NCBI GenBank assembly: GCA_009694755.1
Contig: SICU01000002.1
Span: forward strand, 1 to 42,090
Length of the DNA: 42,090 nt
Origin: Candidatus Pacearchaeota archaeon
Lineage (GTDB): Archaea > Nanobdellota > Nanobdellia > Pacearchaeales > GW2011-AR1
Direction: 5' to 3'
The first letter of the stretch is position 1. Every line of letters begins with the position of its first letter. Positions 2,026 to 21,195 of this stretch are shown here, piece by piece. A program made the translations under genes and the position numbers. The notes under the pieces are model-generated. The model was not told the DNA's origin. It saw only the letters and a program-made list of their open reading frames with translations, and did no database searches.

Positions 2026-2108
2026 ATGTTGAAGGATTTGAAGTCTCTTTTTAATTATTGTGGCTGACAAACGAAGATATTTTTAAAGGGGGTTTGGTAA
2101 ATAATTCA

Positions 2109-2972
2109 ATGCCTATAGTAAAAGGAAAGCCGTTCAAAGAGAAATTCCCGTTAGTTTCATCTATTATTCCCGCATATAAAGAGGAAGATAATATTGCTAC
2201 CTGCATAGAAGCTCTGCTAAACCAGACATATCCAAATATGGAAGTTATTGTCGTAGAAAATGGAAACTCCAAAGATAAAACATATGAAATAGCAAAGTCG
2301 TATGAACAGAAGACAAAGGGCAAAGTGCGAGTCTACACCATTCCAGGGTCGCAAAAAGGACCCGGAAATGCTTTAATTTACGGTTTTAAGAAAACTAAAG
2401 GAAAGATAATCTCACTAGTAGGAGCAGATTTACTCTACGGCAAAGACTACATTTCAAAAGGAATTGCTCCAATTTTAAAAGGTGAGACTGTAGGAACAAA
2501 TCACAAAGAAGAGCTGTGCAAGAATGTTTCAAACTTTTGGGCCAGGGCTTTCTTCTACAGACGCTCATTCATTCAAAAAAATGGTCTCAGCAAAGTATGC
2601 ACGCTAGTAAGAAAAGATTATCTCAAAGATAAGCTCTGGGATCCTTCTCTTGGATATGCAGATGATCAGACAATGTACTTAAAATTTGGTACCGAGTTTC
2701 CAGGATTAGATTTAGAAATTTATCAAAATAATCCTGCGTCATTTAGAGAGATTTGGGAGCACAGCACGTGGGTCGGTAAGTCTATGAATATCAATCCATT
2801 CATAGTAATCTTATCAGTTCCTTTTTGGCCGCTATACATAGTCTATAAAACAATTAAAGATTTAGTAAAAGATGAATTCTATATTCCATTCATATTATTC
2901 CTTCCAGTCTATTATTCAGTCCGTTATGCGGCTTACGTTAAAGAAGCTGTAAAGAAATTAATTCATCGATAG
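2109..2972 (+). CDS. family 2 glycosyltransferase with C-terminal membrane segment
   Basis: VSSIIPAYKEEDNIATCIEALLNQTYPNMEVIVVENGNSKDKT is a typical GT2 N-terminus. The tracked ORF opens with TTG at 2058; the first ATG is at 2109 (MPIVKG), with a TTTTTAAA box about 22 nt upstream. Confidence 0.75.
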   Translation: MPIVKGKPFKEKFPLVSSIIPAYKEEDNIATCIEALLNQTYPNMEVIVVENGNSKDKTYEIAKSYEQKTKGKVRVYTIPGSQKGPGNALIYGFKKTKGKIISLVGADLLYGKDYISKGIAPILKGETVGTNHKEELCKNVSNFWARAFFYRRSFIQKNGLSKVCTLVRKDYLKDKLWDPSLGYADDQTMYLKFGTEFPGLDLEIYQNNPASFREIWEHSTWVGKSMNINPFIVILSVPFWPLYIVYKTIKDLVKDEFYIPFILFLPVYYSVRYAAYVKEAVKKLIHR

Positions 2973-3159
2973 AATTCTTGAAAGTATATTGGGAACAAAA
3001 GAGATATCTTCAGCAGTTTCATAATTCTGATTTATAACTGATTTATTGGAAGTTAACCAGATATTTTTTATTTTATTATTCACAGCTTTCTTCTGAGAAA
3101 GTTATAAGGCTAGCGTTATTTACAATATAAAATCTAAAATATAGGATACTTAAGTCTAT

Positions 3160-4266
3160 CTAGATAGAAGATCCAGCAAAGAAGCTCTTTATATGATTAA
3201 TTACATAATCTGCTTCTGCATCAGTCATACCAGGGAAAATAGGTATTGAAAGAATAGTATCTGCATAGAGTTCAGATTTAGGAAACGCTCCCTTGCTATA
3301 TCCTAAATACTCAAATGCCTTTTGCAAATGTATTGGAACGGGATAGTGCAATCCAGAGTCAATCCCTTTTTCTTTAAGATAGTGCATAAGCTCTTCTCGC
3401 TTATCCGTTCTGATTACAAATAAATGGTATATATGATCTCTATCTTTACTAATCATTGGAACTTGAACAACATCTTTCAAAGCAGCACAGTATCTCTCAG
3501 CAATATTCTTTCTCTGAGAGTTCCAATAATCAAGATGTGGAAGTTTAAGGCGTAAAACAGTTGCTTGTAGAGTGTCTAGTCTTGAATTCACTCCTAAAAT
3601 ATCGTGGCAATATTTTTTAGACTGACCATAATTTCGAATCATTTTTATTTTGTTCATAAGGTTTGCATCGTTAGTTGTGATAAATCCCCCATCACCAAAT
3701 GCTCCTAAGTTTTTTCCAGGATAAAAAGAGAATGCAGCAGCATGACCTAAGTTGCCCGCTCTTTTGTTTTTGTACATAGATCCATGAGATTGGCAGGCAT
3801 CTTCAATAACATACAAATTGTGTCTCTTTGCTATATTCATAATCTCATCCATATCGCATACCTGACCATAAAGATGAACGGGCATAATAGCCTTAGTCTT
3901 AGGAGTTATAACCGATTCAATAAGTGAAGTGTCAATGGTAAAATCTTCTTTTGTATCAACAAGTATTGGTCTTGCACCCACAGCATAAATTGCAGCAGGA
4001 GTAGCATGGAATGTATTGGCAACAGTGATTACTTCATCTTGTGGTCCAATATTCATAGCTTTCAAAATAAGTTCAAGAGCCTGCAAACCATTAGCAACAC
4101 CAATACCATACGCAGTTCCGCAATATGTTGCAAATTCCTTTTCAAATTCTTCAACTGCCTTTCCAAGAATAAAATCATTCTTGTCAAAATGTTCTGCAAA
4201 TTGCTTCAAGAGCGCCTCACGCAAAGGTCTATGAGTCCTATTTAAATCTAAAAATGGAATGTTCAT
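3160..4266 (-). CDS. DegT/DnrJ/EryC1/StrS-family PLP-dependent sugar aminotransferase
   Basis: 368 aa. MNIPFLDL start, GKAVEEFEKEFATYCG, GVANGLQALELIL, VIEDACQSHGS and SFYPGKNLGAFGDGG (the lysine region) are hallmarks of the family. The start overlaps the upstream stop as ATGA (4263-4266). Confidence 0.9.
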   Translation of the reverse strand: MNIPFLDLNRTHRPLREALLKQFAEHFDKNDFILGKAVEEFEKEFATYCGTAYGIGVANGLQALELILKAMNIGPQDEVITVANTFHATPAAIYAVGARPILVDTKEDFTIDTSLIESVITPKTKAIMPVHLYGQVCDMDEIMNIAKRHNLYVIEDACQSHGSMYKNKRAGNLGHAAAFSFYPGKNLGAFGDGGFITTNDANLMNKIKMIRNYGQSKKYCHDILGVNSRLDTLQATVLRLKLPHLDYWNSQRKNIAERYCAALKDVVQVPMISKDRDHIYHLFVIRTDKREELMHYLKEKGIDSGLHYPVPIHLQKAFEYLGYSKGAFPKSELYADTILSIPIFPGMTDAEADYVINHIKSFFAGSSI

Positions 4267-5270
4267 AGGAATACCTCTGCTCCACCAAGTTTTTTAGACT
4301 TTTCAGCAGCCTCTAAAACCTTTACAACATTAATTCCATCTTGGCCATCACTCATACAAGTTTCAGTACCTTGTATACATTTAAAAAAGTGTTCTACTTC
4401 CGTGACTAGAGGTTGAGATAAATTAATTTTTGGAATAAGAATATCTCCCTCTCGAGTTCCAGCCTGAAACTCTGAAAAGTTATTTGGATTGGGTAGGTAT
4501 TCAATTGAGCGATCGTAAATAGTAAGTTTCTCTGATGGATTAACATCATCAAACACAATAGCTTTTTTTGTTCCACCAACAACTATCCTTCTTTCTTTAA
4601 CGGGATGTGCCCAATTTGCGTATGCACTAGCAAATATCTTTCTGGGAAACTTCATGTTAACTGAAACAATCTCATCAATAGTATCCATATAGCCCCCACC
4701 AGAATAATTCACACTTATCGGAGCGGAACCGACTAGGTACATAAAAATATACACTTCATGAGAAATCAAATCCCATAATGCACTTGCATCATATCTCACT
4801 GGACCTAAGGCAACACGACGAGCATCAATATACCTTAAGTCTCCTATTTCACCAGCATCTATTCTACGCTTAAGTTCTCGCAGGGCATGATTATATTTGA
4901 ATATGTGTCCAACCATGAGTATTTTTCGCATGCTCTTTGCCATCTCGTTAAGTTTTTCTGACTCATCAAGGTGTAAAGTCAAAGGCTTTTCTATCAGTAC
5001 ATGTTTTCCAGCCTTCAAAACTTGGGAAGCTATATCAAAATGTGTTTTTGTAGGAGTTGCAATAATAACTGCCTGCACGTCAGAGTCATTAAGAATAGTA
5101 GCAATGTCTTTAGCAAAAGTCACTTCTTTTGGCAAAGATTTTGTTGGAGGATTGAGGTCATGAACATATTTCAAAAAAGCTCCACCAAAAACACCGTCGT
5201 TGTTGAATAAATTAAGATAATTTTTACCCCAATACCCACATCCAATCAAAGCAACAATAGTTTTTTGCAT
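4263..5270 (-). CDS. Gfo/Idh/MocA-family NAD(P)-dependent sugar oxidoreductase
   Basis: MQKTIVALIGCGYWGKNY is a Rossmann N-terminus, and HVLIEKPL is the family EKP motif. The tracked ORF opens with GTG at 5309; the ATG at 5270 gives the canonical N-terminus. Confidence 0.85.
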   Translation of the reverse strand: MQKTIVALIGCGYWGKNYLNLFNNDGVFGGAFLKYVHDLNPPTKSLPKEVTFAKDIATILNDSDVQAVIIATPTKTHFDIASQVLKAGKHVLIEKPLTLHLDESEKLNEMAKSMRKILMVGHIFKYNHALRELKRRIDAGEIGDLRYIDARRVALGPVRYDASALWDLISHEVYIFMYLVGSAPISVNYSGGGYMDTIDEIVSVNMKFPRKIFASAYANWAHPVKERRIVVGGTKKAIVFDDVNPSEKLTIYDRSIEYLPNPNNFSEFQAGTREGDILIPKINLSQPLVTEVEHFFKCIQGTETCMSDGQDGINVVKVLEAAEKSKKLGGAEVFL

Positions 5271-5315
5271 AAACTTCGTAAGAATATGTCTTTTTAAGAA
5301 TATCTGCACAAAATA

Positions 5316-6353
5316 TCAATCAATCTTTCTATAAATTATCTTCTTAATTTCATCTACTGAAGGCTGAAATGGATTTGTTTTAGTGCATATGTCTTTCCTT
5401 ATCTGTTCAGCATCAGCATCATATACCTTGTTATTTTCCAAATCCAAATCTTTGAAAAGCTTTTCAAAAATTTCTACAAAATTAGAGCCAGTAACATTTT
5501 TACAAGAATCAAGCTTTGTATAAACATTGCTGTGAATGCTATTCATTTTAAGGACATCAATAAAATACAAAGATACTGCGTGACTATGAGCAAGATTATG
5601 CTGTGCACCAATAGCATGAGCAATACCATGAATAAGGCCCACAGAAGCAGTGCTTTGAACAATTCCAGCAAGAAAACCAGCAATCTGAAGTTTAGCAATA
5701 GATTCTATATTCTTAGTTTTATATACGGGTAAAGCATTTTCTAAAATCAAATCTATGACTTTAGTTGCAAGCGCATCAGTTAAAATTGTTGCATTTCTCG
5801 AAGCAAGGCCCTCAATAGCATGGGAAAGTGCATCTGCAATTGAATAGGTAATTACTTTAGAAGGAGCTTCAACGCAAAATGCCGGATTAAATATAATTAT
5901 CTCTGGAAGAAGCTTAGAAGATGTAAAAATCTTCTTTTTACTCTGTTCATCAATTAAAAGCGCAAACTGACTTGATTCAGATCCACTGCCTATAGTGGTA
6001 GGTAATAAAATGCTGTTCATATTATTTTCCATCTTCAATATTTTGGCAAGATCCATAACTGCACCACCACCAACACCCATAATGATTTCTGACTTATGCT
6101 CTTCTATTTTAATTTGAGCAGAGATTTTATCTTGTATAATTGGTTCATGATTTAATATAAAGAACTCAACATTACACCCACTTAACCATGATCTCAATAC
6201 GCTTTCTTTAGAATTGTAAACGCTCTTAGAGATAATAATAAAGACTCTTTTATCAATAATTGATTTTAGAAATCTCTCTCCAGCAAGTGCTTCAAGAATC
6301 ATTCCAGGAAAGAAAGACTTAGGGAGCAGACCAAGTATTTTAGATTCAATCAT
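5316..6353 (-). CDS. iron-containing (group III) alcohol dehydrogenase family protein
   Basis: GVGGGAVMDLAK is the nucleotide-binding motif. The His-rich metal region is SHAIEG ... GLIHGIAHAIGAQHNLAHSHA. The start overlaps the ligase stop by 8 nt. Confidence 0.8.
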   Translation of the reverse strand: MIESKILGLLPKSFFPGMILEALAGERFLKSIIDKRVFIIISKSVYNSKESVLRSWLSGCNVEFFILNHEPIIQDKISAQIKIEEHKSEIIMGVGGGAVMDLAKILKMENNMNSILLPTTIGSGSESSQFALLIDEQSKKKIFTSSKLLPEIIIFNPAFCVEAPSKVITYSIADALSHAIEGLASRNATILTDALATKVIDLILENALPVYKTKNIESIAKLQIAGFLAGIVQSTASVGLIHGIAHAIGAQHNLAHSHAVSLYFIDVLKMNSIHSNVYTKLDSCKNVTGSNFVEIFEKLFKDLDLENNKVYDADAEQIRKDICTKTNPFQPSVDEIKKIIYRKID

Positions 6354-7770
6354 GTCTGAGATCCTTTCTTTTTATTTTTCCAGAATCTGTCATAGGAATA
6401 GAATCAACAATAAATACTTTACGAGGTAATTTATATGGCTCAAGATGTTCTTTAAGTTTTTGCAATATTTGTTCTGAAGAGAATTTAGGAGAAACAACAT
6501 ATAGATGAACTACTTCTCCAAATTGAGCATCTTTAGCGCCCACAGCAACAACTTGAGCAGCTAAATCAAGGCTCTTAGCTTTATATTCTATGTCTAAAGG
6601 ATGAACTTTCTCGCCATTTACATTTATGATATCATCTATTCTGCCCATAACATGCAGATAGCCATTTGAATCAAAATAACCACAGTCTCCAGTATATAGC
6701 CAGCCATTCTTTATTTTCTGGGAAGCTACAGGATTATTCCAATATTCTTCAATAACATGTTTGCCTGCTATACATATTTCTCCATCTCTTATCTCTATAC
6801 TAGTATTAGGGCTCGCTTTTCCAACAGAGTCAATTCCTTTAATCTCCTTTGCAAAGTTAATAAATGAAGAACGAGATGCTTCAGTTAACCCATAATAATA
6901 GTTAAAATCCGATGTAGGAAGATCTTCTAGTATTATTTCAACAATTTTTTTATCTATTGGACCAGTATTTGTAAGAATCATTCGTAATTTCCTTGCATAT
7001 TTCTTAAAATCTGATCTGTGATCTTTAACAATATTTCCTAAAGTTTTAGGAGTAGCAGCAAACATAGTAGTTTTATGTTTTTCAAGAGCTTGCAAAACCT
7101 TCACCAGATGAATAAAATTTTGTTCTATTATTACAGTTCCTCCAACCATAAAAGAAACATGAATATGCCCTAAACCAAAAGAGTGAGATAGAGGCAGACC
7201 ACTTAGATAGATATCCGATGAATTATTTTTTATAAATAAGTTAATATTCTTTGTAGCTTGAACTACATTTTCATGAAGAAGTTTTACTCCCTTTGGTGAA
7301 CCAGTAGTACCGGAGGTATAAATAATTGTAGAAACATCTTTAGAAGAGACGGTTACATGGTACTCTTGTGGAGAGTAATATTTCTTCTCAGATTTCTTGA
7401 GCAAGGTAGTTTGCCCAGCAAGGCCTATTCTTTTCATTTTATCTTCTAATTTATCTTCATAAATGAGAAAGTCTGGAGAGCAGTCTTTAACTTCAAATAA
7501 GAGATTTTCATCAGAGATATTTGTAGGAATGATAAATGCAGTGCAAGCCGCTTTAAGAATCCCAAAATAACATACAATAAAATCAATACTATTATCTAAA
7601 ATAATTCCTATCCTCTGCCCTTTACAACTATTTGAGAAATAGTTCCTGACTTGATTTGACATATCCTCAAGTTGTTTATATGTTACAGACTGTCCATCAG
7701 AAATAACTGCTATTTTTTCAGGATATAGAGAAGATGATTTTTCAAGAAAAGAATGAATTGTTTCATCCAT
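6346..7770 (-). CDS. ANL-superfamily adenylate-forming ligase (acyl-CoA/acyl-carrier-protein ligase)
   Basis: 474 aa with the motifs YTSGTTGSPKGV, YYGLTE, YTGD and the C-terminal SGKIKRKDL. It overlaps the ACP gene stop by 8 nt. Confidence 0.9.
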   Translation of the reverse strand: MDETIHSFLEKSSSLYPEKIAVISDGQSVTYKQLEDMSNQVRNYFSNSCKGQRIGIILDNSIDFIVCYFGILKAACTAFIIPTNISDENLLFEVKDCSPDFLIYEDKLEDKMKRIGLAGQTTLLKKSEKKYYSPQEYHVTVSSKDVSTIIYTSGTTGSPKGVKLLHENVVQATKNINLFIKNNSSDIYLSGLPLSHSFGLGHIHVSFMVGGTVIIEQNFIHLVKVLQALEKHKTTMFAATPKTLGNIVKDHRSDFKKYARKLRMILTNTGPIDKKIVEIILEDLPTSDFNYYYGLTEASRSSFINFAKEIKGIDSVGKASPNTSIEIRDGEICIAGKHVIEEYWNNPVASQKIKNGWLYTGDCGYFDSNGYLHVMGRIDDIINVNGEKVHPLDIEYKAKSLDLAAQVVAVGAKDAQFGEVVHLYVVSPKFSSEQILQKLKEHLEPYKLPRKVFIVDSIPMTDSGKIKRKDLRHD

Positions 7771-7978
7771 TTTTTGATTGTAATATCTTTAAAATATCTT
7801 GAGCGGACTCTATTGATACTACTTGATCAACAGTAAGAGACACATTAAAGACCGATTCAACTTCACTAACGAGCTCCATATGGGCAAAAGAGTCCCATCG
7901 TTCATATTCTGATTGCTTCTTTGTAGAATCATAACTGCCTAAAACTTTGATAAAAATACCTTTCAATTTTTCTTCCAT
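7763..7978 (-). CDS. acyl carrier protein (phosphopantetheine-binding)
   Basis: 71 aa and acidic. WDSFAHMELV matches the DS(L/F) phosphopantetheine attachment site followed by helix II. It lies immediately downstream of AcpS and upstream of the ligase. Confidence 0.8.
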   Translation of the reverse strand: MEEKLKGIFIKVLGSYDSTKKQSEYERWDSFAHMELVSEVESVFNVSLTVDQVVSIESAQDILKILQSKNG

Positions 7979-8322
7979 ATATCCTCCACAATAGCAAACG
8001 CAATTGCTGTATCTTTTGAATGGCTCATACTTAAATGAATTTTATATTTCTTATTTAAACCTTTGTTTCTAAATGCCACTTGAGGGAATTTTCTCACTTT
8101 TATTATTTCAATATCCTCAAAAAGAAGAGTTATATCTAAAGATGAAAACGCTTTTTTTACAGCTTCCTTCCCACAAAATCTGGCAGCAAAATGTTGTTCA
8201 GGATTTGGGAGTGAATTACAGTAAGTTATCTCTTGGGTTGTAAATAATTTATTTGACAATTCTTTTTTTATATTCTTAAATCGAGAGGTTTTTTCGCAGT
8301 CAACACCAACGCCAAGAATCAC
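7963..8322 (-). CDS. acpS: holo-[acyl-carrier-protein] synthase (AcpS-type 4'-phosphopantetheinyl transferase)
   Basis: 119 aa. ILGVGVDCEKTSRF, FAARFCGKEAVKKAF and HLSMSHSKDTAIAFAIVE follow the AcpS pattern. The GTG start overlaps the upstream stop (GTGA at 8319-8322). Confidence 0.8.
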   Translation of the reverse strand: MILGVGVDCEKTSRFKNIKKELSNKLFTTQEITYCNSLPNPEQHFAARFCGKEAVKKAFSSLDITLLFEDIEIIKVRKFPQVAFRNKGLNKKYKIHLSMSHSKDTAIAFAIVEDIWKKN

Positions 8323-8981
8323 CTTAACTCACTACCCTTTAAGTTTCTAACTTTACGTAAAGGATTCCCTACATAAATACCAGGAGAATTAATTGGTTTT
8401 GAGATAACTGATCCAGCACCTATAATAATATTATCTCCAATAGCTATTCCTGGAAGAATGGAAGAGTTCTCTCCTATTGCCGAGTTGCTTCCAATAGTAA
8501 TTTTGTCTAAAATATTACAAGGAAGTCTCATCATATATTTATCAAGAGCCATTGATACATGAGGTCCAATAAATGTATTCTCTCCTATAATTGTGTGCTC
8601 TCCAATAAGCGCCCCAGCTTGTATGCGAACTCCTTTATGAAGAACAACATCAAACTCAACAATAGCGTGCTTCCCTACTCTTACTCTTTCATGCAAAACG
8701 CAGCCTTCTCTAACAATAGCTGCATCGGACACAATAGTTTCTTTCCCTATATTTGTTCCAGCATAAATTATGGCATTTGTTCCAATAAGAGATCCTTCAC
8801 CAATTATAGCAGGTCCTCTTTCATGCAATGTTAATGTTGAACTTGCAATCATTTTAGGTTGCTTGCCAATAATGGCACCATCTTGAATAATAACATTATC
8901 TTCAATAATAGTACCAGGATAAATAATGACATTCTGTCCAATAGAAACGTTCTTTCCCTTTATTTCCATGTTACTACCCAT
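8319..8981 (-). CDS. hexapeptide-repeat (left-handed beta-helix) acyltransferase
   Basis: 220 aa of repeated [LIV]-G-x4 units (IGQNVIIYPGTIIEDNVIIQDGAIIGK ... IGSNSAIGENSSILPGIAIGDNIIIGAGSVI). An alternative ATG lies at 8969. Confidence 0.85.
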   Translation of the reverse strand: MGSNMEIKGKNVSIGQNVIIYPGTIIEDNVIIQDGAIIGKQPKMIASSTLTLHERGPAIIGEGSLIGTNAIIYAGTNIGKETIVSDAAIVREGCVLHERVRVGKHAIVEFDVVLHKGVRIQAGALIGEHTIIGENTFIGPHVSMALDKYMMRLPCNILDKITIGSNSAIGENSSILPGIAIGDNIIIGAGSVISKPINSPGIYVGNPLRKVRNLKGSELR

Positions 8982-10120
8982 CGAACCATTCTATCTATAG
9001 CAAACATACCGTCCCAAGGAGAATCAAAAAGAGTCATAGATCCAAGTTTAGGACACCTATCAACACCAAATAAAGTCATATCATCAATAAACTGTGTTCT
9101 TTTAATATTATTCTCCATAGCAATTCCAACAGTTTGCTGATGTCTGCTATTTAAATGTTTCAAATTATCAAGTGATCTGACAAATATAACTCTTGAAAAG
9201 CAAGGGTCTGCAAGACCTTTTTCATCAGAATAAATAACAGTCCAATCAGTATTTTTAGAAGCGAAGACTGTCCCAGTAATAGTATACTCCTCTCTAAGCG
9301 TTAAAATCTCTAGTTTCTTTCCAGGATCAGTAAATCCTTTAGGAATCATCAGACGATTAACTTTGTCTAATTCCTTTGAAAGAATTTGAGCGAATTCTAA
9401 AGCATTTCCATCAACAAAAATAGTGTGGGGAGATGAACAAGCAGTTTGGTCAAAGGTAGAAATATCAAAAGCAATTTTTCTTGCCGACTCAATAGTTGCA
9501 TTCTTTTTATCTACAATAGCATAAGAATATTTTGGGCCATACACAATATCTTCACAAAAAACATCTTTTTTATAATGCATAATAGCCTCAATAGCTTCCT
9601 TCCCACCCCAAGCTATTCTTATATCAGCAGCTTTCGATATCTCTTCATTTCTTTGCTTGTCTTTACTATCAATAGAGACAATTGCAAATGTCTGAGCAAA
9701 TTCTTTGCCTTTAATTGCAGAGGTATCTACTCGTTCAAATACTTCAGCCAGCTTCTTAAGTTCTTGATAGTATGAATATGGAGCTCTTACCAAAGATACA
9801 TTTTTTGTAATCATAGCTTGAATTAAGGAATATAATCCAAGAGTTTTAACATTTCCCGCAACCCAATGAACAGCTAAACCTCTAGGTTGAACATGATATA
9901 AACGACCATCTTTTAGTTCTATAAAATCATCAAGTATCTTATAACTTCCCCGTAAAGCGAGATCTAACATCATTTTTAGATTATCTTTTGACATAAAGTT
10001 TTTGACTTCTTTTTCTTCTATAGATTTACCAACTGCATCCAAATAGTCAAGAATATCATCAATTTTCAGTGCATGAATATATTCTCTTTTATTTTTTAAA
10101 TCCTGAATTATTTGATTCAT
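8960..10120 (-). CDS. LuxC-like acyl-CoA/acyl-carrier reductase (aldehyde-forming)
   Basis: HWVAGNVKTLGLYSLIQAMITKNVSLVRAP and the Cys region QTACSSPHTIFV resemble the LuxC family by recall. The tracked ORF opens with TTG at 10138; the ATG at 10120 overlaps the LuxE-like stop as ATGA. Confidence 0.75.
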   Translation of the reverse strand: MNQIIQDLKNKREYIHALKIDDILDYLDAVGKSIEEKEVKNFMSKDNLKMMLDLALRGSYKILDDFIELKDGRLYHVQPRGLAVHWVAGNVKTLGLYSLIQAMITKNVSLVRAPYSYYQELKKLAEVFERVDTSAIKGKEFAQTFAIVSIDSKDKQRNEEISKAADIRIAWGGKEAIEAIMHYKKDVFCEDIVYGPKYSYAIVDKKNATIESARKIAFDISTFDQTACSSPHTIFVDGNALEFAQILSKELDKVNRLMIPKGFTDPGKKLEILTLREEYTITGTVFASKNTDWTVIYSDEKGLADPCFSRVIFVRSLDNLKHLNSRHQQTVGIAMENNIKRTQFIDDMTLFGVDRCPKLGSMTLFDSPWDGMFAIDRMVRWVVTWK

Positions 10121-11169
10121 TTTAAAGTATCTCCACAACCCTTTAGTTCAGCATTTTTTGCTCGCTCTTTGAAAATAAAATACTTTCCTTTTCTTCCGCA
10201 TAAGCAGTCATCTTCACCAATGATTTTACCGATATCATCTGTAAGGAGAGAAATTCCTGGGTAGCTATGAGGAACAGGGCTGATTAACTGTATAAATCCT
10301 TCAGAAGTACTCTCTAATGTACCAACATCTCTCATAATTACATCAGAATAATTTGGAACATGTTTGTAACCTTGTTCACAATCAATGTAAACAGTACCTA
10401 ATTGTTCAGTCATGCCATAAATATCATAAATTTTTACAGACGCAAGGCTTGAACTAACTGTTTTATTGAAAACATCTTTTGAGACACTGATATCACTAAG
10501 TTTTTTCCATCCTCCAATATGAAGAATAACACTTTCTGGAAAGTTTATTGGTGAGATATCCTTTACTATTTTGTAGAGTAACCAAGTAAAACCAAAAAAG
10601 CAAACTGGTTGACCCTTTAATTTAATTAAAATTTCCTCTAGAGCTCGCGTTTTAAGATGCAAATCATCATCTAGAATAAAAGTAACTGATTTAGCAAAAG
10701 GCAACATGCCCCTAATAGCAGAACCTCTTGATGACAATGAATGTTCATTAGACTTTATTGTATTTTCAGTATCAAAAACAATAAGATTGATTCTTTGGTT
10801 GCCAATAAAAGAGGAGACTATAGAATTAAGGCATTTTACTTGCCTTTTTCTAGTTAATTCATCAAGATAAATCATACTTGGATTATTTCCAGTAGTAGCG
10901 CTAGATTTAACAACAGTAACTATATCTTCATCTTTAACAGAAATAAGTTTCATTTTTTTGAATAAATTAACTGAAATAAATGGTAATTTTTCAATATCAG
11001 AATTAAATGTATTATTCCAGCCTTTAGAATCACAAATCTTTCTAAACTCAATGGAATGATTATAATGAAAATTGATTGCTTCTGTAATTGCAGGAACAAA
11101 ATACTTATCCTTTTCTTTCTTTTCTAAATTAAAAGGCTGCTGCTCTAAAAGTAAATCTGTTCGATCCAT
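10117..11169 (-). CDS. LuxE-like acyl-protein synthetase / adenylating enzyme
   Basis: LPFISVNLFKKMKL, VKSSATTGNNPS, LHIGGWKKL and the C-terminal ELKGCGDT resemble the LuxE family by recall. It is the first gene of the minus-strand operon, with TTTTTATA about 25 nt upstream. Confidence 0.75.
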   Translation of the reverse strand: MDRTDLLLEQQPFNLEKKEKDKYFVPAITEAINFHYNHSIEFRKICDSKGWNNTFNSDIEKLPFISVNLFKKMKLISVKDEDIVTVVKSSATTGNNPSMIYLDELTRKRQVKCLNSIVSSFIGNQRINLIVFDTENTIKSNEHSLSSRGSAIRGMLPFAKSVTFILDDDLHLKTRALEEILIKLKGQPVCFFGFTWLLYKIVKDISPINFPESVILHIGGWKKLSDISVSKDVFNKTVSSSLASVKIYDIYGMTEQLGTVYIDCEQGYKHVPNYSDVIMRDVGTLESTSEGFIQLISPVPHSYPGISLLTDDIGKIIGEDDCLCGRKGKYFIFKERAKNAELKGCGDTLK

Positions 11170-11193
11170 GGTTAATTTTGCTCAAATAACAAC

Positions 11194-11201
11194 TATAAAA
11201 A
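11194..11201 (-). promoter_or_regulatory. TATA-like box (TTTTTATA on minus strand) for the LuxE-led operon
   Basis: It lies 25-32 nt upstream of the ATG at 11169. This matches the spacing seen at other operon-first genes here. Confidence 0.35.
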
Positions 11202-11240
11202 CAAGCGATGCGACACATTTTAAACCTATGGTTAACTAGT

Positions 11241-11248
11241 TTTAAATA
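11241..11248 (+). promoter_or_regulatory. TATA-like box (TTTAAATA) for the GT4/GT-C pair
   Basis: It lies 21-28 nt upstream of the ATG at 11269. Confidence 0.35.
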
Positions 11249-11268
11249 CAGAGTTTTATTAAAAATAT

Positions 11269-12405
11269 ATGCGTATTTTAGAGCTTACAAACTATACTGC
11301 TGGTTCATGCGGAGTAAGTAAGCGAGTTATTAGAGAGTCTCAAATGCTTGCTAAAGAAGGAAATATAGTGAGAATATTTTCTTCAAATTTAGTTAAAGGC
11401 AATTCTCAAATTTGTCAACAATTTGAAAAAATAGGAGATATACAAATAACTAGATTTAATGCTAAAAAATTAGGGGGAGAAAGTTTTCTTAATTGGAGTT
11501 TTGAGAAAGAAGCCATTTCATTTATGCCAGATATTATCATAGCCCATGCATATCGTCATTTACACACGCTTAAAGCACTAAAAATAGCCTCTAAAATAAA
11601 AGTTCCTTGTCTGATAGTTACTCATGCTCCTTTCAAAAGAGAAAAAACGAGGAATTTATCGCAAAATTTAATCGTATGGTTGTATGATTTATTAATTGGT
11701 AGAAAAACAATTGCTAAGTTCGATAAAGTTTTAATTATTGCTCCCTGGGAAGTAAAATATTTATTAAATTTAGGGATTTCCAAAGATAAATTAGTTTATT
11801 CACCTAACGGAATAGACATAGAATTCTTTAAAAGAAAAATTGAATATAATAAATCTAGACTAGTTATTTACACAGGTAGAATTGCCCCAATAAAAAATTT
11901 AGAAGTTTTAATTGATTCAATGAAATTAGTTAATAGCGAAGTAAATCTTTTAATATACGGCCCAGCAGAAAAAGATTATTTAATAAAATTAGCTAATTTA
12001 GTTATAAAAAATAAACTTCAAAGAAGAGTTTCTATAATAAATAAAGAATATGACTTACAACAGCAGTTAAAACTTCTTGATAAATCAGAAATATTCGTAC
12101 TTCCCTCAAAAAGCGAAGGAATGCCACAGTCATTAATTGAAGCAATGGCTAGAGCAAAGATAGTAATTGGGAGCGATATTATATCCATAAATTCTATAAT
12201 TCATAATGGCGATAATGGTTTTACTTTTAAAGAAAATGATTCGAAAGACCTTGCTAAAAAAATAAATTTAGTTTTAGAGCTCAATTCATCTAAAAGAATA
12301 GCTATTAAAAAAGCAGCAGTCTCTTCAGTCAAAGCATTTAAATGGCCTTTAATAATAAAAGATCTTAATAATCTTCTAATAACGGTTAAAAAAAATCATG
12401 GTTGA
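11269..12405 (+). CDS. GT-B fold glycosyltransferase (family 4/1)
   Basis: 378 aa. The C-terminal half has FVLPSKSEGMPQSLIEAMARAKIVIGSD, the E-x7-E region typical of GT4. Confidence 0.85.
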   Translation: MRILELTNYTAGSCGVSKRVIRESQMLAKEGNIVRIFSSNLVKGNSQICQQFEKIGDIQITRFNAKKLGGESFLNWSFEKEAISFMPDIIIAHAYRHLHTLKALKIASKIKVPCLIVTHAPFKREKTRNLSQNLIVWLYDLLIGRKTIAKFDKVLIIAPWEVKYLLNLGISKDKLVYSPNGIDIEFFKRKIEYNKSRLVIYTGRIAPIKNLEVLIDSMKLVNSEVNLLIYGPAEKDYLIKLANLVIKNKLQRRVSIINKEYDLQQQLKLLDKSEIFVLPSKSEGMPQSLIEAMARAKIVIGSDIISINSIIHNGDNGFTFKENDSKDLAKKINLVLELNSSKRIAIKKAAVSSVKAFKWPLIIKDLNNLLITVKKNHG

Positions 12406-13867
12406 AAAAACAATAAACGAAAAACAAAACTATTATTTAATATTTTTAATTTTAATTGGTGCAACAATTAGAATATACTTCCTTAATTTAGTAAAAAATC
12501 AAGCTCACTGGTGGGATTCATTAGCCTATGGTAGTTTAGCAAAAAATATGATTTATCATAAATGGGATGATGTTCCATTTTTAATTCACGAATCAATTAT
12601 TCGTCCCCCTTTATTGCCACTTATTTGGAGTTGGTTAATTAGAATAGGGTCTTCAGATTATGCGATTATTTTTATTACTAATATTATTCCTTCAATAATT
12701 TCAATATACTTAATTTATCTAATTGCTAAAGAAATGTATGGGAGCACTATAGGAATATTTTCAGCCATATTTGCTTCAATATCCTGGATTTATTTATTTT
12801 ATTCAGCAAGAGCTCTTACAGATATTCCTTCAATGTTTCTGGCATTAGCAAGCATATATTTCTTTATAAAATCTTATGAATTATTTAATATCAAATTCTG
12901 GAGTTTATCCGTTTTTTGTTTAGCCTTATCAGTTTTATTTAGGTACTCTTACGCATTATTTGCTTTAATATATATAATATTTCTTATATTCATACATAAA
13001 ACTCAATTAATTAAAAAAAAGAAATTTTGGTTGGGGGGAATATTAGGAGCAACACCTATAATCTTTTTCATAATTTTTAATTTAATCAGTTATGGTTCTA
13101 TTTTACCAGCTGCCGAAGAATATACTTCTAGTGCAAGCGAGAAAACAAACTTTGCTTGGTACACTTTATCATTCATAAATCACATTTTACGTTTTCCTAT
13201 GTTAATTTTATTTTATATTGGGGGATTGATTATCCTTCTAAAAACTATAATGAGCTATGGACTCATAGGAAAATTTAAAGAGTCAAAAATGCATGTATTT
13301 AATCTATTATTAGTAATTATCTCTCTTTCATTTTATATATTTTTCTTAAAAGCTTCAGAAGATAGATATCTATTAGGGATTTCTAGTGCCTTATTTATAT
13401 TTTCAGCAATTGGACTTCACAGTATTTTTAAAATTTTATTACCTTATAATAAGAAGATAGCTTTTGGAGTTTGCATTTTTATTTTAATATGGTCAATTTA
13501 TAGCCAAATTCTTTTTGCAAATACTTTAATTTTAGATAAAAAAGAGTCCTATAGACCAATGAAAGACGCATTTAATTGGGTATATCACAATACTCCAGAA
13601 AATACACTAATTGCAGGTGATTGGGCAGAACCATATGCAATATATTATTCAGAACGCAAAGTCCAAATATTGCCGCAAGATCTGAACTTTAGCAATTTTA
13701 CTCTTGAAGCAGATTATGTTATCCTTACAGCAGTTCATTCTCCAAATGAAAAAGTAGGTAATTATGTAAGAAAGTTAGCTGAGGATGGACAACTAATTTT
13801 ATCTAAAGTTTTCTTTTTTGATGAGGCTCAAAAAAATCCAGCAGTAGTTATTTATAAGCGAAAATAA
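12398..13867 (+). CDS. polytopic GT-C glycosyltransferase, ArnT/PMT (GT39/GT83)-like
   Basis: 489 aa with many TM helices. The N-terminal first-loop region (NQAHWWDSLAYGSLAKNM...IRPPLLPLIW) and a soluble C-terminal domain match the ArnT/PMT_2 architecture by recall. It overlaps the GT4 stop by 8 nt. Confidence 0.55.
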   Translation: MVEKTINEKQNYYLIFLILIGATIRIYFLNLVKNQAHWWDSLAYGSLAKNMIYHKWDDVPFLIHESIIRPPLLPLIWSWLIRIGSSDYAIIFITNIIPSIISIYLIYLIAKEMYGSTIGIFSAIFASISWIYLFYSARALTDIPSMFLALASIYFFIKSYELFNIKFWSLSVFCLALSVLFRYSYALFALIYIIFLIFIHKTQLIKKKKFWLGGILGATPIIFFIIFNLISYGSILPAAEEYTSSASEKTNFAWYTLSFINHILRFPMLILFYIGGLIILLKTIMSYGLIGKFKESKMHVFNLLLVIISLSFYIFFLKASEDRYLLGISSALFIFSAIGLHSIFKILLPYNKKIAFGVCIFILIWSIYSQILFANTLILDKKESYRPMKDAFNWVYHNTPENTLIAGDWAEPYAIYYSERKVQILPQDLNFSNFTLEADYVILTAVHSPNEKVGNYVRKLAEDGQLILSKVFFFDEAQKNPAVVIYKRK

Positions 13868-13869
13868 TC

Positions 13870-14520
13870 TCAAGATTTAATAGCTAAAATTGCAATTTCG
13901 TTACCTTTCGAATTATGTCGAAGATATTCTAGCGTATCAATATATTTAGCTAAAACATTTACTTTTTTTCTTAATAAATATTTTGCGAAAAAATGAATAT
14001 ATAATGCAATTAATTCAATAATCGAGCCACCTGCAAATATTTTTTTCAAAATAAATCCTTTATTTGTTAAAATTTTAGTAATAGAGTTTATTGAATAATG
14101 CCTTTCATGTTGAACATACCTTACAGGGTTAAGATAGCTAAGAAGAGTATCATTTGGTACACAAATAATTAGATGTCCCTTCCTTTTTAGAACTCTATAA
14201 ATTTCATCGACAGCTCCTTTATCATTTTTTATATGTTCAAGTACATCAAGCATAATCACTTGCGTCAAGGACTCATTTTTAAATGGAAGTTTTGTAGCAT
14301 CACATTGAAGTTTATTCAAGGATTTATTCTCTTTTCCAAGGTTTTTTTTATCCAAATCCGAAGAAATAAATTCGTTATTATTTAAAAAAAGATTATTTTC
14401 AATCCACTGCATCTCACCTGCCCCGATATTCAATGTCTTACCTTTAATTTTAGTATCTATCATTGACGCACAAATTCTTTCACGTCCATACAATTTCAAA
14501 TTATTTTTTATTTTTTGCAT
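13870..14520 (-). CDS. class I SAM-dependent methyltransferase (Methyltransf_11-like)
   Basis: TLNIGAGE is motif I. VIMLDVLEHIKNDKGAVDEIYRVLKRKGHLIICVPN covers motifs II-III. It is the last gene of the AglB operon and overlaps the upstream gene by 20 nt. Confidence 0.8.
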   Translation of the reverse strand: MQKIKNNLKLYGRERICASMIDTKIKGKTLNIGAGEMQWIENNLFLNNNEFISSDLDKKNLGKENKSLNKLQCDATKLPFKNESLTQVIMLDVLEHIKNDKGAVDEIYRVLKRKGHLIICVPNDTLLSYLNPVRYVQHERHYSINSITKILTNKGFILKKIFAGGSIIELIALYIHFFAKYLLRKKVNVLAKYIDTLEYLRHNSKGNEIAILAIKS

Positions 14521-15469
14521 TATTCAAAACACCAAATATAATCGAATATGTAGACACCAAATTAATTACTGGTTCATTAAAAAAACATAAATCTCGGTAT
14601 TTTAAAAAATGATACATTGCTACAAAAATAGGTAAAATTATAGAATTTGTATAAATCAGCCAAATTCCTATTTTTGGCAAGTCTTTATTCCAATTTATCC
14701 ATTTAAACAATCTTTTTTTCTTATTTGGAAAATATGTTCTTTGCAAGTTCCTTATACGTTTTTTATAAAGTTCAGCAAGGCTTCTCAATAAGTGATGATA
14801 AACTCCAGTTTCTGGAACATATGCAAAATTAGTATATCCCATATTAAATAATACGGCTGGAATTTCATTGTCTATTAACTGAGTTTCATTAGATACATAA
14901 TCAATAATGAGATTTCTTCTATAAATCATAAGCCCTTGCGGAGGTATTTTTTCGCGAGTTAAAGCGCAAAAAAAGTAATTTTTTCTTTTTTCAACGATTA
15001 TTTCTTTAATCGATGTAGTAAAATATTTAAAAATTGGATCTCTCTGCCATTCATCATACGATAAAGTTCTAGTTAATGGGTGATGTGTCGGATTAACAAG
15101 AAATCTTATAAAAACTCCCACAATAGAATCATCCTCTTCTAAAGGAAAAGTCATTTTTCTAACAAAATTTTCATCACTTAAGACCATATCAGCATCTAAA
15201 TACATAAAGAAATCTCCTTTAGCCTTCAAGAATCCTTTCATTTTGCTTACTTCAGCATCTTTAACTTTATTAAATATGACTCGAATATTAATTTTTTTAG
15301 AAAAACTCTTTACAATAGAAACAGTGTCATCAGTAGAATAATTATCGACTACAATAACCTCTATTTTATTTTTTTTAATTTTTTGGCAAGCAATAGACTC
15401 CAAACATAATTTAATATCTTTTGATTCGTTATATGTTGGTATAATTATGCTAAGAACTGATTGGCTCAT
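14501..15469 (-). CDS. family 2 glycosyltransferase with C-terminal TM segments
   Basis: LSIIIPTYNESKDIKLCLESIACQ, VIVVDNYSTDDT and YLDADM (DxD). Confidence 0.85.
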   Translation of the reverse strand: MSQSVLSIIIPTYNESKDIKLCLESIACQKIKKNKIEVIVVDNYSTDDTVSIVKSFSKKINIRVIFNKVKDAEVSKMKGFLKAKGDFFMYLDADMVLSDENFVRKMTFPLEEDDSIVGVFIRFLVNPTHHPLTRTLSYDEWQRDPIFKYFTTSIKEIIVEKRKNYFFCALTREKIPPQGLMIYRRNLIIDYVSNETQLIDNEIPAVLFNMGYTNFAYVPETGVYHHLLRSLAELYKKRIRNLQRTYFPNKKKRLFKWINWNKDLPKIGIWLIYTNSIILPIFVAMYHFLKYRDLCFFNEPVINLVSTYSIIFGVLNNAKNKK

Positions 15470-16486
15470 CTATTCGCCAAATTCTAAGTCTTTAAATGTC
15501 TTTTTATGCTTAATAAAATACTCCATTGCAATGCTTTGAGGATAGATTAAATTATTCAAATTAGATTTTTCTGAAAATAACTTGCTCTTTATTATATTCT
15601 TTCGTTGAATAAAATAATAAATTATATTTGGTAAACTTAAGACAAAAGGAATTCCTCTTTTTAAAGGAAATCTTAATGCCGAAATTAATTCAAGCATCAA
15701 TCTAGTTGGAAGCAATTTTAAGATATTAAACATAGAATAATTTTTTAAAAAAGCTAATATGTGATTTCGAGTAATATAATACTCTTTTTTAAAATTAATT
15801 TTTTCATAATTAACACTAAAACTTCCCATATGATAGACTACCGATTTTGGAGAGTACCAAATCTCCATTCCTTGATTATTTGTTCTCCAACAAAAATCTA
15901 GTTCTTCAGCATACATAAAAAATTTTTCATCAAACATACCTCGTTTAATAAATTCATCACGGTTTACAAGAAAAGAGACACCACAACCCCAAAAAATCCT
16001 AGTTTCATCGTCATATTGCCCCTTATCTTTTTCAACATTATCAAAAATTCTCCCTCTGCAAAATGGATATCCATATTTATCAATAAAACCTCCAGCTGCA
16101 CCAGCATTTTCAAAATAATTTCGATTATAGAAAGATTTTACTTTTGATTGTACTCCTATACATTTTGAATGAGCTTTTAATGTTTTAATCATTTCATTTG
16201 CCCAATTTTTACTTACAATTAAATCATTATTTAAAAATATTATTTGCTTAGCTTTAGATTGCATCGCTAAAAAGTTTGAAGCTTGAGCAAAACCTAATCG
16301 TTCATGAGTAATATAAAATTTTACTTGTGGAAATTTTTTTCCTACAACTTCTATAGATTTATCAGTAGTTGCATTAAATAATATCGTTACCTTAGCAGAA
16401 GCATCATCTGCAAAAATGGACTTCAAACAGTTAATTATAACCTCTGTCCCATTAAGATGAATAATCAGTATTTCTAATTCTTTCAT
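15470..16486 (-). CDS. family 2 glycosyltransferase (rhamnosyl/galactosyl-transferase-like)
   Basis: ILIIHLNGTEVIINCLKSI, IIFLNNDLIV, WGCGVSFLVNRDEF and YAEELDFCWR are typical of the GT2 WbbL-like group. Confidence 0.8.
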   Translation of the reverse strand: MKELEILIIHLNGTEVIINCLKSIFADDASAKVTILFNATTDKSIEVVGKKFPQVKFYITHERLGFAQASNFLAMQSKAKQIIFLNNDLIVSKNWANEMIKTLKAHSKCIGVQSKVKSFYNRNYFENAGAAGGFIDKYGYPFCRGRIFDNVEKDKGQYDDETRIFWGCGVSFLVNRDEFIKRGMFDEKFFMYAEELDFCWRTNNQGMEIWYSPKSVVYHMGSFSVNYEKINFKKEYYITRNHILAFLKNYSMFNILKLLPTRLMLELISALRFPLKRGIPFVLSLPNIIYYFIQRKNIIKSKLFSEKSNLNNLIYPQSIAMEYFIKHKKTFKDLEFGE

Positions 16487-17280
16487 TTTATTGTCAATTT
16501 GTGATTTATTTTAATTATCTCGGGTAATGAGTCATATGCTCTATTAATAAATGAAAAAGGGGAATGAATGAGTCTTAAGCGTATAATTCCCAATAACATT
16601 TTTAACGAAGCCCTAATTATATCTAATTTAGACATATCTTGATCATGCCATACAGTTGGAAATTCAATAATTTTAAGATTTTGAAGTTTACACAAATATA
16701 ATAAATTTACATCAAATGCCCATTGAGTGATAAAGACTTTAGGAACAATTTTTTCAATGTCTCTTATTTTAAACAATTTTGAGCCACATTGAGTGTCTTC
16801 ATAGCTCATAAAAAAAAGTAATTTAACTATCGTATTAAAAATTCTACTCGCCAATAATCTAATTAGAGATTGTTTTTTTGAGATTACAGATTTTGAAGAC
16901 CATCTGTTACATATTATTCCGGAATTATTTCCAATATTCAAAATAAGCTCTTGAAAGTCCTTGGGACTAGTAGACAAATCAGCATCAACAAATCCGACAA
17001 AATCATATTTTTTTTCGATAAAATATTTGAAGCCTTGAATTACTGCATAGCCCTTTCCTCCAAGTTCAAGATTAAGATATGCAATATTCTTAAATTTTTT
17101 AGTATATTTTTTTACAATTTTTTCAGTAAAGTCTTTTGTATTGTTAATAACCACAAGCAGGGAATATTCTTCATTATTATTTTTCTGTTTTTTATGATAA
17201 TAATTCGCATATTCTTGAAGCATTCTACCAATTCTTTTTTCTTCATTATGTGCTGGAATAACTATACCTATTTTTTTCAT
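16483..17280 (-). CDS. GT2 dolichyl-phosphate hexose synthase-like glycosyltransferase
   Basis: IGIVIPAHNEEKRIGRMLQEY, FVDADLSTSP and EDTQCGSKLF resemble Dol-P-Glc/Dol-P-Man synthase (Alg5/Dpm1/AglJ-like) proteins. There are ATGA overlaps on both sides. Confidence 0.7.
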   Translation of the reverse strand: MKKIGIVIPAHNEEKRIGRMLQEYANYYHKKQKNNNEEYSLLVVINNTKDFTEKIVKKYTKKFKNIAYLNLELGGKGYAVIQGFKYFIEKKYDFVGFVDADLSTSPKDFQELILNIGNNSGIICNRWSSKSVISKKQSLIRLLASRIFNTIVKLLFFMSYEDTQCGSKLFKIRDIEKIVPKVFITQWAFDVNLLYLCKLQNLKIIEFPTVWHDQDMSKLDIIRASLKMLLGIIRLRLIHSPFSFINRAYDSLPEIIKINHKLTIK

Positions 17281-18488
17281 TTTCTTAGCACCATTAATGA
17301 TCCAATAAAAAGTAAAATATTAGATACAAGAAAAGCAAAAGCATATGTAACTAAAGTTTGTGAAAAAGTACAGAGTAGAATAATTTCAATTATAAGAAAA
17401 ATTAAAATATATTGATAATGGCTTTTTTTACCTTGTGATAATTTATAATAAAGAATAGCGCTAGATAAAGAGAGGAAAGTAGTGCCAATTGCCAAAATTA
17501 TTGTTGGTAAAACTGCTTCAGTTACAACCTTTTTAGATATCAAATAAATTATTTCTTCCGTAAACAAACTTATTGTAATTAAAGCTAAAGTACATAACAG
17601 AAGTATTAGAATAATCGCCCTCTTAAAATTATGAGTCGGTGGACTTTCACGTGTTGAAGCATGAACTGTAAGCGGAAATAATACTTTATTTATAGGCTGT
17701 ATTCCGATAAATATTATCAACGAAATAGTTGAAGCAATAGCATAAATTCCTGCTGTCATCTGATCAAAAAAATATCCTGCAAGAAGAATATCAATATTCA
17801 AAAATAAAATTAAAACGAGAGTAACCATAAAAACAGGTTTACTATAAGCTCGTATATCTTTCAATTCTATAAACGAAGATTTGCTCTTAAGTATATTTTT
17901 TAAATATATCAAAGATAATAATAGAGATAGAATGATGCTGATTATCACACCCCAAATTGCACCAAATACTCCAAATCCGAAATAAACTAATAAGAATGCA
18001 AATATTATTTTAAATCCTGCTTCCGAAATCATAGAAAATCCTAAAGCCCAAAATCTTTGTTGTCCTTGGAGAATTCCTCTGCTAATTGGAATAAACATAG
18101 AACAAATAATAAATAGACTAGTAGTAAGGAGAAGGGCATAAGGTATTTTCAAAATAGGAGATATAAAGATTGACAAAAATAGAAAAATAATCATTACTAC
18201 TAACGTCGGTTTGATAAGTCCTTTAGTTACTCTTAAAAATATATTTTTTAATTTACCTTTATCTTCTCTCGGTGTAGAAGCATACTTTACTACTACTATT
18301 TGTATAGCTTCCATAAATATTGCACCGATGTAAAGAAAAGCAAAAACTCTTTTTAATAGTCCGAAATCCTCGATAGAAAGCATACGAGCCATAATAATAT
18401 GATAAAGAAAGTTAAGAATATTAAACAATCCAACCAGAAATAAAAATATTATGCTATATTTCACTAATTTATTTTGAAGATTAATCAT
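17277..18488 (-). CDS. MOP-superfamily oligosaccharide flippase (Wzx/AglR-like)
   Basis: 403 aa, about 12 hydrophobic helices and no soluble domain. The start overlaps the AglB stop as ATGA. Confidence 0.6.
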   Translation of the reverse strand: MINLQNKLVKYSIIFLFLVGLFNILNFLYHIIMARMLSIEDFGLLKRVFAFLYIGAIFMEAIQIVVVKYASTPREDKGKLKNIFLRVTKGLIKPTLVVMIIFLFLSIFISPILKIPYALLLTTSLFIICSMFIPISRGILQGQQRFWALGFSMISEAGFKIIFAFLLVYFGFGVFGAIWGVIISIILSLLLSLIYLKNILKSKSSFIELKDIRAYSKPVFMVTLVLILFLNIDILLAGYFFDQMTAGIYAIASTISLIIFIGIQPINKVLFPLTVHASTRESPPTHNFKRAIILILLLCTLALITISLFTEEIIYLISKKVVTEAVLPTIILAIGTTFLSLSSAILYYKLSQGKKSHYQYILIFLIIEIILLCTFSQTLVTYAFAFLVSNILLFIGSLMVLRK

Positions 18489-21166: not shown

Positions 21167-21187
21167 ATATCTATTGGAAAAATATCT

Positions 21188-21195
21188 TATTTAAA
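21188..21195 (-). promoter_or_regulatory. TATA-like box (TTTAAATA on minus strand) for the aglB operon
   Basis: It lies 22-29 nt upstream of the ATG at 21166. Confidence 0.35.

Follow-up and report, generated by a model that had tools for sequence, protein, structure and literature searches.

An acyl carrier protein and an AcpS-type phosphopantetheinyl transferase in a Pacearchaeota sugar-modification operon, with a probable role in glycan acylation

The stretch of DNA analysed here (the window; 42,090 nucleotides, contig SICU01000002.1 of assembly GCA_009694755.1) is a whole contig of the 520-kb genome of a Candidatus Pacearchaeota archaeon, which is 85% complete. Two genes on its minus strand, overlapping by 16 nt, encode a small acyl carrier protein (ACP) and a phosphopantetheinyl transferase (PPTase) of the AcpS type, and this pair is the subject of our analysis. 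An initial annotation made from the sequence alone had given both open reading frames, their overlap and three peptides of the AcpS pattern, and all of these are present in the DNA as claimed. The two genes are the following.

7763..7978, minus strand: acyl carrier protein, probably dedicated, 71 aa, with the predicted phosphopantetheine site Ser30 in W-D-S (profile family, conserved residues, ACP fold)
7963..8322, minus strand: AcpS-type (group I) 4'-phosphopantetheinyl transferase, 119 aa (PF01648, profile match to 1F80, invariant residues, AlphaFold2 fold)

The identity of the 119-aa protein as an AcpS-type PPTase is confirmed by profiles, residues and predicted fold. It consists of a single AcpS domain of the expected size (~120 aa) and exceeds the curated family cut-offs of both PF01648 (57.9 bits, cut-off 25) and TIGR00556 (66.9 bits, cut-off 45.35). 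It falls under the cut-off of every NCBIfam equivalog model of housekeeping AcpS, and therefore we regard it as a divergent member of the family. A profile built from 22 AcpS homologues matches the Bacillus subtilis AcpS structures 1F80, 1F7L and 1F7T at about E 1e-24 (8.5e-25 for 1F80). All 22 homologues have D8, R14, E53 and K57, and at least 90% have H101. More specifically, D8, E53 and K57 align with the GIGLD, KEA and SKA motifs of 1F80, where metal- and CoA-site residues are located in the solved structure; the B. subtilis counterparts are presumably Asp8, Glu58 and Lys62. The AlphaFold2 model (predicted local distance difference test, pLDDT, 93.7) has the alpha/beta fold of AcpS, and each of the best 50 Foldseek matches is either an AcpS enzyme or the PPT domain of a fungal fatty-acid synthase (FAS), with template modelling (TM) scores of 0.74-0.82. 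Members of the AcpS family are homotrimers with active sites at the subunit interfaces, and they arm their carrier using coenzyme A (CoA). The gene starts with GTG, which overlaps the stop codon of the upstream gene as GTGA.

The 71-aa protein is likewise confirmed as an acyl carrier protein by profile relatives and modelled fold, with phosphopantetheine attachment predicted at Ser30. A profile built from six close relatives (word-index search) and then used in an exhaustive search of the library (E up to 1e-3) recovers 1779 relatives of 70-90 aa. The 60 relatives that were aligned all share W28, S30 and E41, and at least 90% have D29; 49 of the 60 match the PF00550 family (best E 3.7e-9), as does the orthologue in G141, a genome from another family of the class, at 29.2 bits. 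Among solved relatives, the Geobacter holo-ACP 2LML comes closest in sequence (E 5e-4), and the WDS..H motif is found in both. The AlphaFold2 model (pLDDT 87.7) has helices at residues 2-13, 30-44, 50-55 and 59-69, so that S30 falls within the opening turn of helix II, and the top fold matches in the PDB are all ACPs (TM 0.78-0.88, root-mean-square deviation 1.3-1.8 Å). The carrier is small and acidic (pI 4.8), with E35, E39 and E41 on helix II, and its charge is complementary to that of AcpS (pI 9.5). A GGAGG motif lies 4 nt upstream of its ATG. Both protein assignments of the initial annotation have thus held up in profile searches and structure prediction, apart from the PF00550 score of the carrier itself, which stays below the cut-off and is considered below.

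The pair resembles AcpS-ACP of B. subtilis (1F80) in length, fold, Mg- and CoA-site residues, the pairing of basic enzyme and acidic carrier, and the location of the serine where helix II begins. It differs in not being linked to fatty-acid synthesis, and its AcpS is part of a cassette-linked lineage made up mostly of archaeal sequences. Where D-S-L is usual, the carrier reads W-D-S-x-x-H, and its identity to FAS ACPs is only ~20%.

Both genes lie within a nine-gene operon (3160-11169, minus strand) with overlapping frames. All nine genes are intact and have Pfam assignments. The other seven genes and the flanking region are listed here.

3160..4266, minus strand: DegT/DnrJ/EryC1 sugar aminotransferase, 368 aa (PF01041, 386.5 bits), the putative source of the amino group to be acylated
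4263..5309, minus strand: Gfo/Idh/MocA oxidoreductase, 348 aa (PF01408), nearest to archaeal UDP-GlcNAc 3-dehydrogenase (NF040723, 129.5 bits, below cut-off)
5316..6353, minus strand: iron-type alcohol dehydrogenase (Fe-ADH), 345 aa (PF25137, PF00465), candidate for an aldehyde-to-alcohol step
6346..7770, minus strand: AMP-binding acyl ligase, 474 aa (PF00501, 204 bits; PF13193), putative loader of an acid onto holo-ACP
8319..8981, minus strand: left-handed beta-helix (hexapeptide) sugar N-acyltransferase, 220 aa (Hexapep, 99 bits), which would transfer the acyl group from ACP to an amino sugar
8960..10138, minus strand: LuxC-type acyl reductase, 392 aa (PF05893, 267.5 bits), with the cysteine motif ACSSP
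10117..11169, minus strand: LuxE-type acyl-protein synthetase, 350 aa (PF04443, 216 bits)
11269..21166, no strand given: flanking glycan-assembly genes (Pfam), namely a GT4 glycosyltransferase (GT), a PMT_2-type GT-C, a methyltransferase, three GT2, a flippase and AglB/STT3 (18485-21166)

The putative catalytic cysteines are conserved: C234 of LuxC (in ACSSP) is invariant in 24 homologues, and LuxE has a cysteine seven residues from its C-terminus (KGCGDT), a motif also found in G141 and in the congener G001. The hexapeptide acyltransferase scores highest with the NeuD/PglB/VioB family (111.8 bits), followed by LpxD and LpxA. A lipid A-like function of the LpxD/LpxA kind was considered for this enzyme and rejected, since it scores higher with the NeuD/PglD family and genes for the rest of lipid A synthesis are absent. 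For the AMP-ligase, the nearest NCBIfam models are acyl-CoA ligases. The pair lies, as the initial annotation had it, inside a sugar-modification operon beside AglB. Beyond AglB/STT3 follow SecY and then a ribosomal operon with L19e, L32e and S4e, so that the archaeal markers named in that annotation were all found, together with SecY.

Could the two genes be a decaying remnant that has no current function? The genome is very reduced, and AcpS is 54% identical between two congeners while ACP is 87% identical, which would fit decay. In spite of this, both frames are intact, the key residues are invariant across 22 AcpS and 60 carrier homologues, the gene overlap is kept in the congeners G001 (where it is also 16 nt) and G006, and nine intact operon genes persist in a genome of 0.5 Mb. 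We consider decay highly unlikely.

It is important to note that the operon has an unusual composition. In tetranucleotide usage it deviates more than any other part of the genome, ranking at the 99th percentile of 8-kb windows by distance from the mean, and its GC content is 33.5%, as compared to 31.6% for the genome, which could be taken to mean that bacterial DNA was joined to an archaeal contig by mis-assembly or binning. However, the adjacent GT/AglB part is about as atypical (96th percentile, GC 28%), and L19e, L32e, S4e, SecY and AglB are on the same contig. Across positions 54-18488 of the window, every gene has its counterpart in the same order on a 175-kb contig of G001, with amino-acid identities of 42-88%. 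Moreover, in the independent Logan assembly of two freshwater runs a single contig of 28,040 bases crosses 2501-22500 with zero differences and flat depth, and in two runs of another study the locus is recovered as short contigs that show 0-1 differences, with 7340-8555 covered by a single one. An artefact of this kind is extremely improbable, and the view that this is not a bacterial contig proved correct: the contig is supported as genuinely archaeal and correctly assembled. The atypical composition is compatible with a mobile glycan island and is no sign of a chimera. The whole island (3160-21166) deviates from the genome in two GC directions, upwards in the operon and downwards in the GT/AglB part.

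On the basis of the operon content, the tight gene overlaps and the AglB neighbourhood, the pair appears to serve the decoration of an amino sugar of a surface or N-linked glycan. We consider it likely that the two proteins form a dedicated phosphopantetheine carrier system for glycan acylation. In the scheme that we propose, AcpS would move 4'-phosphopantetheine from CoA onto Ser30 of the apo-carrier, and the AMP-ligase would then attach a small carboxylic acid to the holo-carrier as a thioester. A second, distal carboxyl group could be activated by LuxE and LuxC and reduced to an aldehyde. LuxE enzymes adenylate the acid and then acylate their own C-terminal cysteine. Reduction of the acyl group to the aldehyde is the task of LuxC (PMC9157457). 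Fe-ADH would take this aldehyde to an alcohol, following the logic proposed for the 2,4-dihydroxybutanoyl ('tetronate') group in Vibrio cholerae O1. The amino group would be placed on a nucleotide sugar by the Gfo-type dehydrogenase and the DegT aminotransferase, the hexapeptide acyltransferase would shift the acyl group from the carrier to this amino group, and the neighbouring glycosyltransferases, flippase and AglB would assemble and attach the glycan. The specific hydroxy-acyl chemistry, in which a di-acid is reduced, is drawn by analogy, and we hold it to be possible, with the chances somewhat under even.

This analogy comes from the rfbK-L-M-N-O (wbeK-O) genes of the V. cholerae O1 antigen, which are assigned to the 3-deoxy-L-glycero-tetronyl N-acyl group of perosamine; in the proposed scheme the tetronyl group would be built on a carrier and passed to perosamine by a hexapeptide transferase. 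The pathway was reportedly proposed by Morona et al. in 1995 (PMID 8529890, cited in PMC12208996). Activation of 2,4-dihydroxybutanoate and its attachment to CoA or to the carrier RfbK are ascribed to the ligase RfbL (PMC12208996). At the level of families and of that description, the two systems share a small carrier, an AMP-ligase, Fe-ADH, LuxE- and LuxC-type steps and a hexapeptide acyltransferase, and both adjoin a sugar aminotransferase in a surface-glycan locus. All six families of this cassette (carrier, AMP-ligase, LuxE, LuxC, alcohol dehydrogenase and hexapeptide acyltransferase) are co-located in the glycan locus of the window, and the set is present also in G001 and in many environmental loci. 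In contrast to V. cholerae O1, the archaeal cassette has an AcpS gene of its own, resides in an archaeal host next to AglB and has LuxC and LuxE as separate genes, and its sugar route looks like a 3-dehydrogenase plus aminotransferase rather than perosamine synthesis.

Similar modules have been described in bacterial flagellin glycosylation islands, with Acp, AMP-synthetase, FabG, LuxE and LuxC in the Group II islands of Aeromonas (98 strains; PMC7874193) and ACP, AMP-synthetase, LuxE, LuxC and FabG in Enterobacteriaceae (PMC4875605). There the module is situated inside pseudaminic/legionaminic-acid loci, and the relative G141 shares this layout (pseB-like, DegT, FabG, LuxC, LuxE, ligase, ACP, NeuC, NeuB). 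Specifically, the FabG, LuxC, LuxE, AMP-ligase and 76-aa ACP genes of G141 lie inside a nonulosonate locus together with a PseB-like dehydratase, DegT, a NeuC-like epimerase, NeuB and a CMP-synthase-NeuB fusion. The window differs from the flagellin islands in having Fe-ADH in place of FabG, a Gfo/DegT amino-sugar route and its own AcpS. No PPTase is listed in the bacterial module descriptions (PMC12208996, PMC7874193, PMC4875605). In G141 a 347-aa protein (L128:10912-11955) joins PglD_N, hexapeptide and ACPS domains, with AcpS at the C-terminal end. This fusion of a PglD-type acyltransferase with AcpS links AcpS to sugar N-acylation, and it hints that the PPTase may work in a complex with the acyltransferase. 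The locus of the window is one more member of a recurrent module and no new kind of system.

Several results weigh against a glycan-acylating carrier system. The carrier scores only 18.0 bits on PF00550, below the cut-off of 20.8. The acyltransferase, ligase, dehydrogenase, LuxC and LuxE are all under the NCBIfam equivalog cut-offs, and therefore their substrates are not assignable from these models. The bacterial cassette that provides the analogy has been described but is itself biochemically unsolved. There is no RNA run among the sequencing runs listed as holding the locus. As for the donor, no gene of the DFP/CoaBC, archaeal DUF359 dephospho-CoA kinase, CoaE or PPAT types for CoA synthesis was detected in the 85% complete genome, so that the CoA for AcpS would need to be taken up. 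The same picture is seen in relatives: DFP and DUF359 were also not found in five congeners (G001, G002, G006, G007 and G013) or in G141, nor was CoaE in the congeners, and among all these seven genomes the PPAT-type family was found only in G007 and G141. The genome studied here and its congeners are 85-91% complete, which does not prove that the genes are lacking. Probably the organism imports CoA or a late precursor.

Another possibility is that the carrier handles other cargo, either an aminoacyl group in the logic of Dlt-like D-alanylation or an aldehyde or alcohol that is released and not attached to a sugar. The AMP-ligase does match an amino-acid adenylation domain model at 159 bits, free aldehydes are the classical product of LuxC and LuxE (PMC9157457), and the substrates are not predictable from sequence. 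Yet acyl-CoA-ligase models score higher on the ligase (279 bits), a Dlt-type scheme needs no LuxE, LuxC or Fe-ADH, and an amino sugar is suggested as the acceptor by the hexapeptide N-acyltransferase, by the aminotransferase and by the PglD-AcpS fusion. We regard other cargo as unlikely.

Next to glycan acylation, a role of the pair in fatty-acid or lipid metabolism should be considered, in the form of a bacterial-type FAS II or of lipid re-acylation. Genes of bacterial-type fatty-acid metabolism have been reported in DPANN archaea (PMC10936187, PMC8204110). Ketosynthase (PF00109) and the malonyl-CoA:ACP transacylase FabD (PF00698), which together mark a bacterial type II fatty-acid synthase, gave no match in the genome studied here; at 85% completeness this does not prove their absence. 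The genome search returned a single AcpS and a single carrier. The claim of the initial annotation that the pair is self-contained is borne out in so far as there is one carrier, one PPTase and no detected ketosynthase or FabD. The neighbours of the pair are all sugar-modifying or glycan-assembly genes.

A lipid role finds an argument in a second archaeal AcpS clade (12 rows, SH-aLRT branch support 97), which includes the congener G007 and stands beside a gene that looks lipid-directed. This second lineage, seen in G007 and in at least eight other genomes of the phylum (L101, L104-L106, L111, L112, L114, L115), adjoins a fusion of AMP-binding, PP-binding and PlsC-type acyltransferase domains of ~830-860 aa (860 aa in G007, L006:9759-14767). 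Between its AcpS and the fusion are an alpha/beta hydrolase and a membrane transporter-like gene. The fusion resembles a self-contained acyl-ACP synthetase/lysolipid acyltransferase and may re-acylate lipids. If this is true, it would be notable in archaea that are thought to scavenge lipids. However, the AcpS of the window is in the other, cassette-linked lineage, and a lipid function of the pair is quite improbable.

Regarding the origin of the pair, the initial annotation had suggested that it was imported together with the surrounding operon. A recent bacterial import is not supported by our results, although an older bacterial origin is conceivable. In a tree of 143 AcpS the window protein is in a clade of 44 (SH-aLRT 99) that comprises three members of its own genus, 15 of its own phylum, one each of Woesearchaeota, Nanoarchaeia and Methanoregulaceae, 21 unlabelled metagenome sequences and two that are labelled bacterial. 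Labelled members of this clade are thus 21 archaeal versus two bacterial, and the other 75 bacterial AcpS are elsewhere in the tree. The named LuxC relatives nearest to the window are all archaeal (Nanoarchaeota, Woesearchaeota, Nitrosopumilaceae/Thaumarchaeota and 'archaeon'), and the cassette is syntenic in congeners. Bacterial AcpS were also tried as closest kin: the hits from a scan of genome contigs were for the most part housekeeping AcpS of bacteria (29-42% identity), and none of them was near cassette genes or nearest in the tree. When environmental AcpS are added, all cassette-linked AcpS group with the archaeal clade (74 rows, one bacterial), but since the branch support is only 48, a single origin of the cassette-linked and archaeal AcpS is not shown by this grouping. 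Mobility of the cassette among archaea is plausible given the atypical tetranucleotides and the presence of AcpS in 4 of the 17 genomes of the genus. A search of 24 further genomes from the family and order yielded no AcpS.

It was also stated that archaea generally lack ACP and its activating enzyme. This holds for most archaea, but the rarity had been overstated. Sporadic ACP and AcpS in archaea, most of which lack an ACP system, have been reported by Lombard et al. (PMC3533463), and ACP-pathway genes have been mentioned in DPANN (PMC10936187). In an even sample of 400 high-quality genomes of the phylum (281 genera), PF01648 is present in 32 genomes and 31 genera. The carrier type occurs in 23 genomes of the sample and both components in 18; in 14 of these, the carrier and AcpS genes share a contig and are no more than 5 kb apart. 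Put differently, the carrier type accompanies AcpS in 18 of the 32 AcpS genomes, as compared to a (weak) match in five of the 368 AcpS-free genomes. Four genomes of the sample are unpublished (G283, G284, G361 and G398; tree rows L087, L100, L105 and L107 rest on them), and the counts are 28 for AcpS, 20 for the carrier, 15 for both and 11 for the linked pair when they are left out. In a second archaeal phylum, that of a Methanoregulaceae genome, PF01648 is above the cut-off in 28 of 301 genomes. Most archaea are without the system, and a minority of ~8-9% in these two phyla has a PPTase.

The association of the pair with the cassette was surveyed further in metagenome contigs scanned with a LuxC profile, from which 80 loci were taken. 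Among them LuxE is found in 77, the ligase in 62, the carrier in 56 and AcpS in 53, and AcpS stands beside the carrier in 51 of the 56 loci with a carrier. All 24 loci that have no carrier end within about 3.7 kb upstream of LuxC, and the carrier is present in all 56 loci with enough upstream sequence. These counts and the placement of AcpS in the tree establish that the in-cluster AcpS is a regular part of the cassette lineage and is not peculiar to this genome. Many marine contigs among the loci L132-L211 (24-31% GC) have a fixed layout in which AcpS is divergent from ACP, ligase, LuxE and LuxC and Fe-ADH is missing, and their number indicates that the cassette is abundant in the ocean. Cluster members of this marine unit are in part labelled Thaumarchaeota and otherwise unlabelled. 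In the NCBI annotation the corresponding genes of a congener are named 'acyl carrier protein' and 'acyl-CoA reductase', and the proteins are labelled 'Nanoarchaeota archaeon'.

A cassette-borne AcpS makes sense in hosts that have no housekeeping AcpS. Polyketide and non-ribosomal peptide clusters (e.g. PMC9813960) offer a parallel, as there too the PPTase travels with the carrier that it activates and renders the cluster self-sufficient; they differ from the window, which has the small AcpS type, a glycan-decorating cluster and no synthase modules. We tentatively suggest, as a speculation that is more doubtful than not, that the built-in AcpS and carrier make the LuxE/LuxC cassette portable and self-sufficient, so that it could circulate mainly among archaea otherwise lacking phosphopantetheine biology (DPANN, Thaumarchaeota, methanogens). 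A symbiont with a 0.5-Mb genome would then spend CoA derived from its host solely on arming one carrier for a hydroxy-acyl group on its N-glycan. This raises the question of where a CoA-auxotrophic symbiont obtains its CoA. If the pair does serve glycan acylation, carrier-protein chemistry, usually treated as absent from archaea, would be used in a gene-poor organism for the decoration of surface glycans and not for lipids. ACP and AcpS hits in archaeal metagenome-assembled genomes should therefore be read with caution as signs of bacterial-type fatty-acid synthesis. The small, soluble, one-to-one pair is also a convenient entry to a cassette chemistry that is uncharacterised even in the cholera O1 antigen and bacterial flagellin glycans.

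Some minor observations concern sequence variation at the locus. AcpS is the fastest-evolving gene of the operon, its identity between two congeners being 54% as compared to 87% for the carrier and 88% for the hexapeptide transferase (window 7763-8322 versus L005:9714-10282). With amino-acid identities of 54-87%, the synonymous sites between congeners are saturated. Within AcpS a G>A difference at window position 8009 is carried by one contig of low depth (6x) from a run of the second study, and the same run has T>G differences at 4124 and 4301, which were assigned to the aminotransferase.

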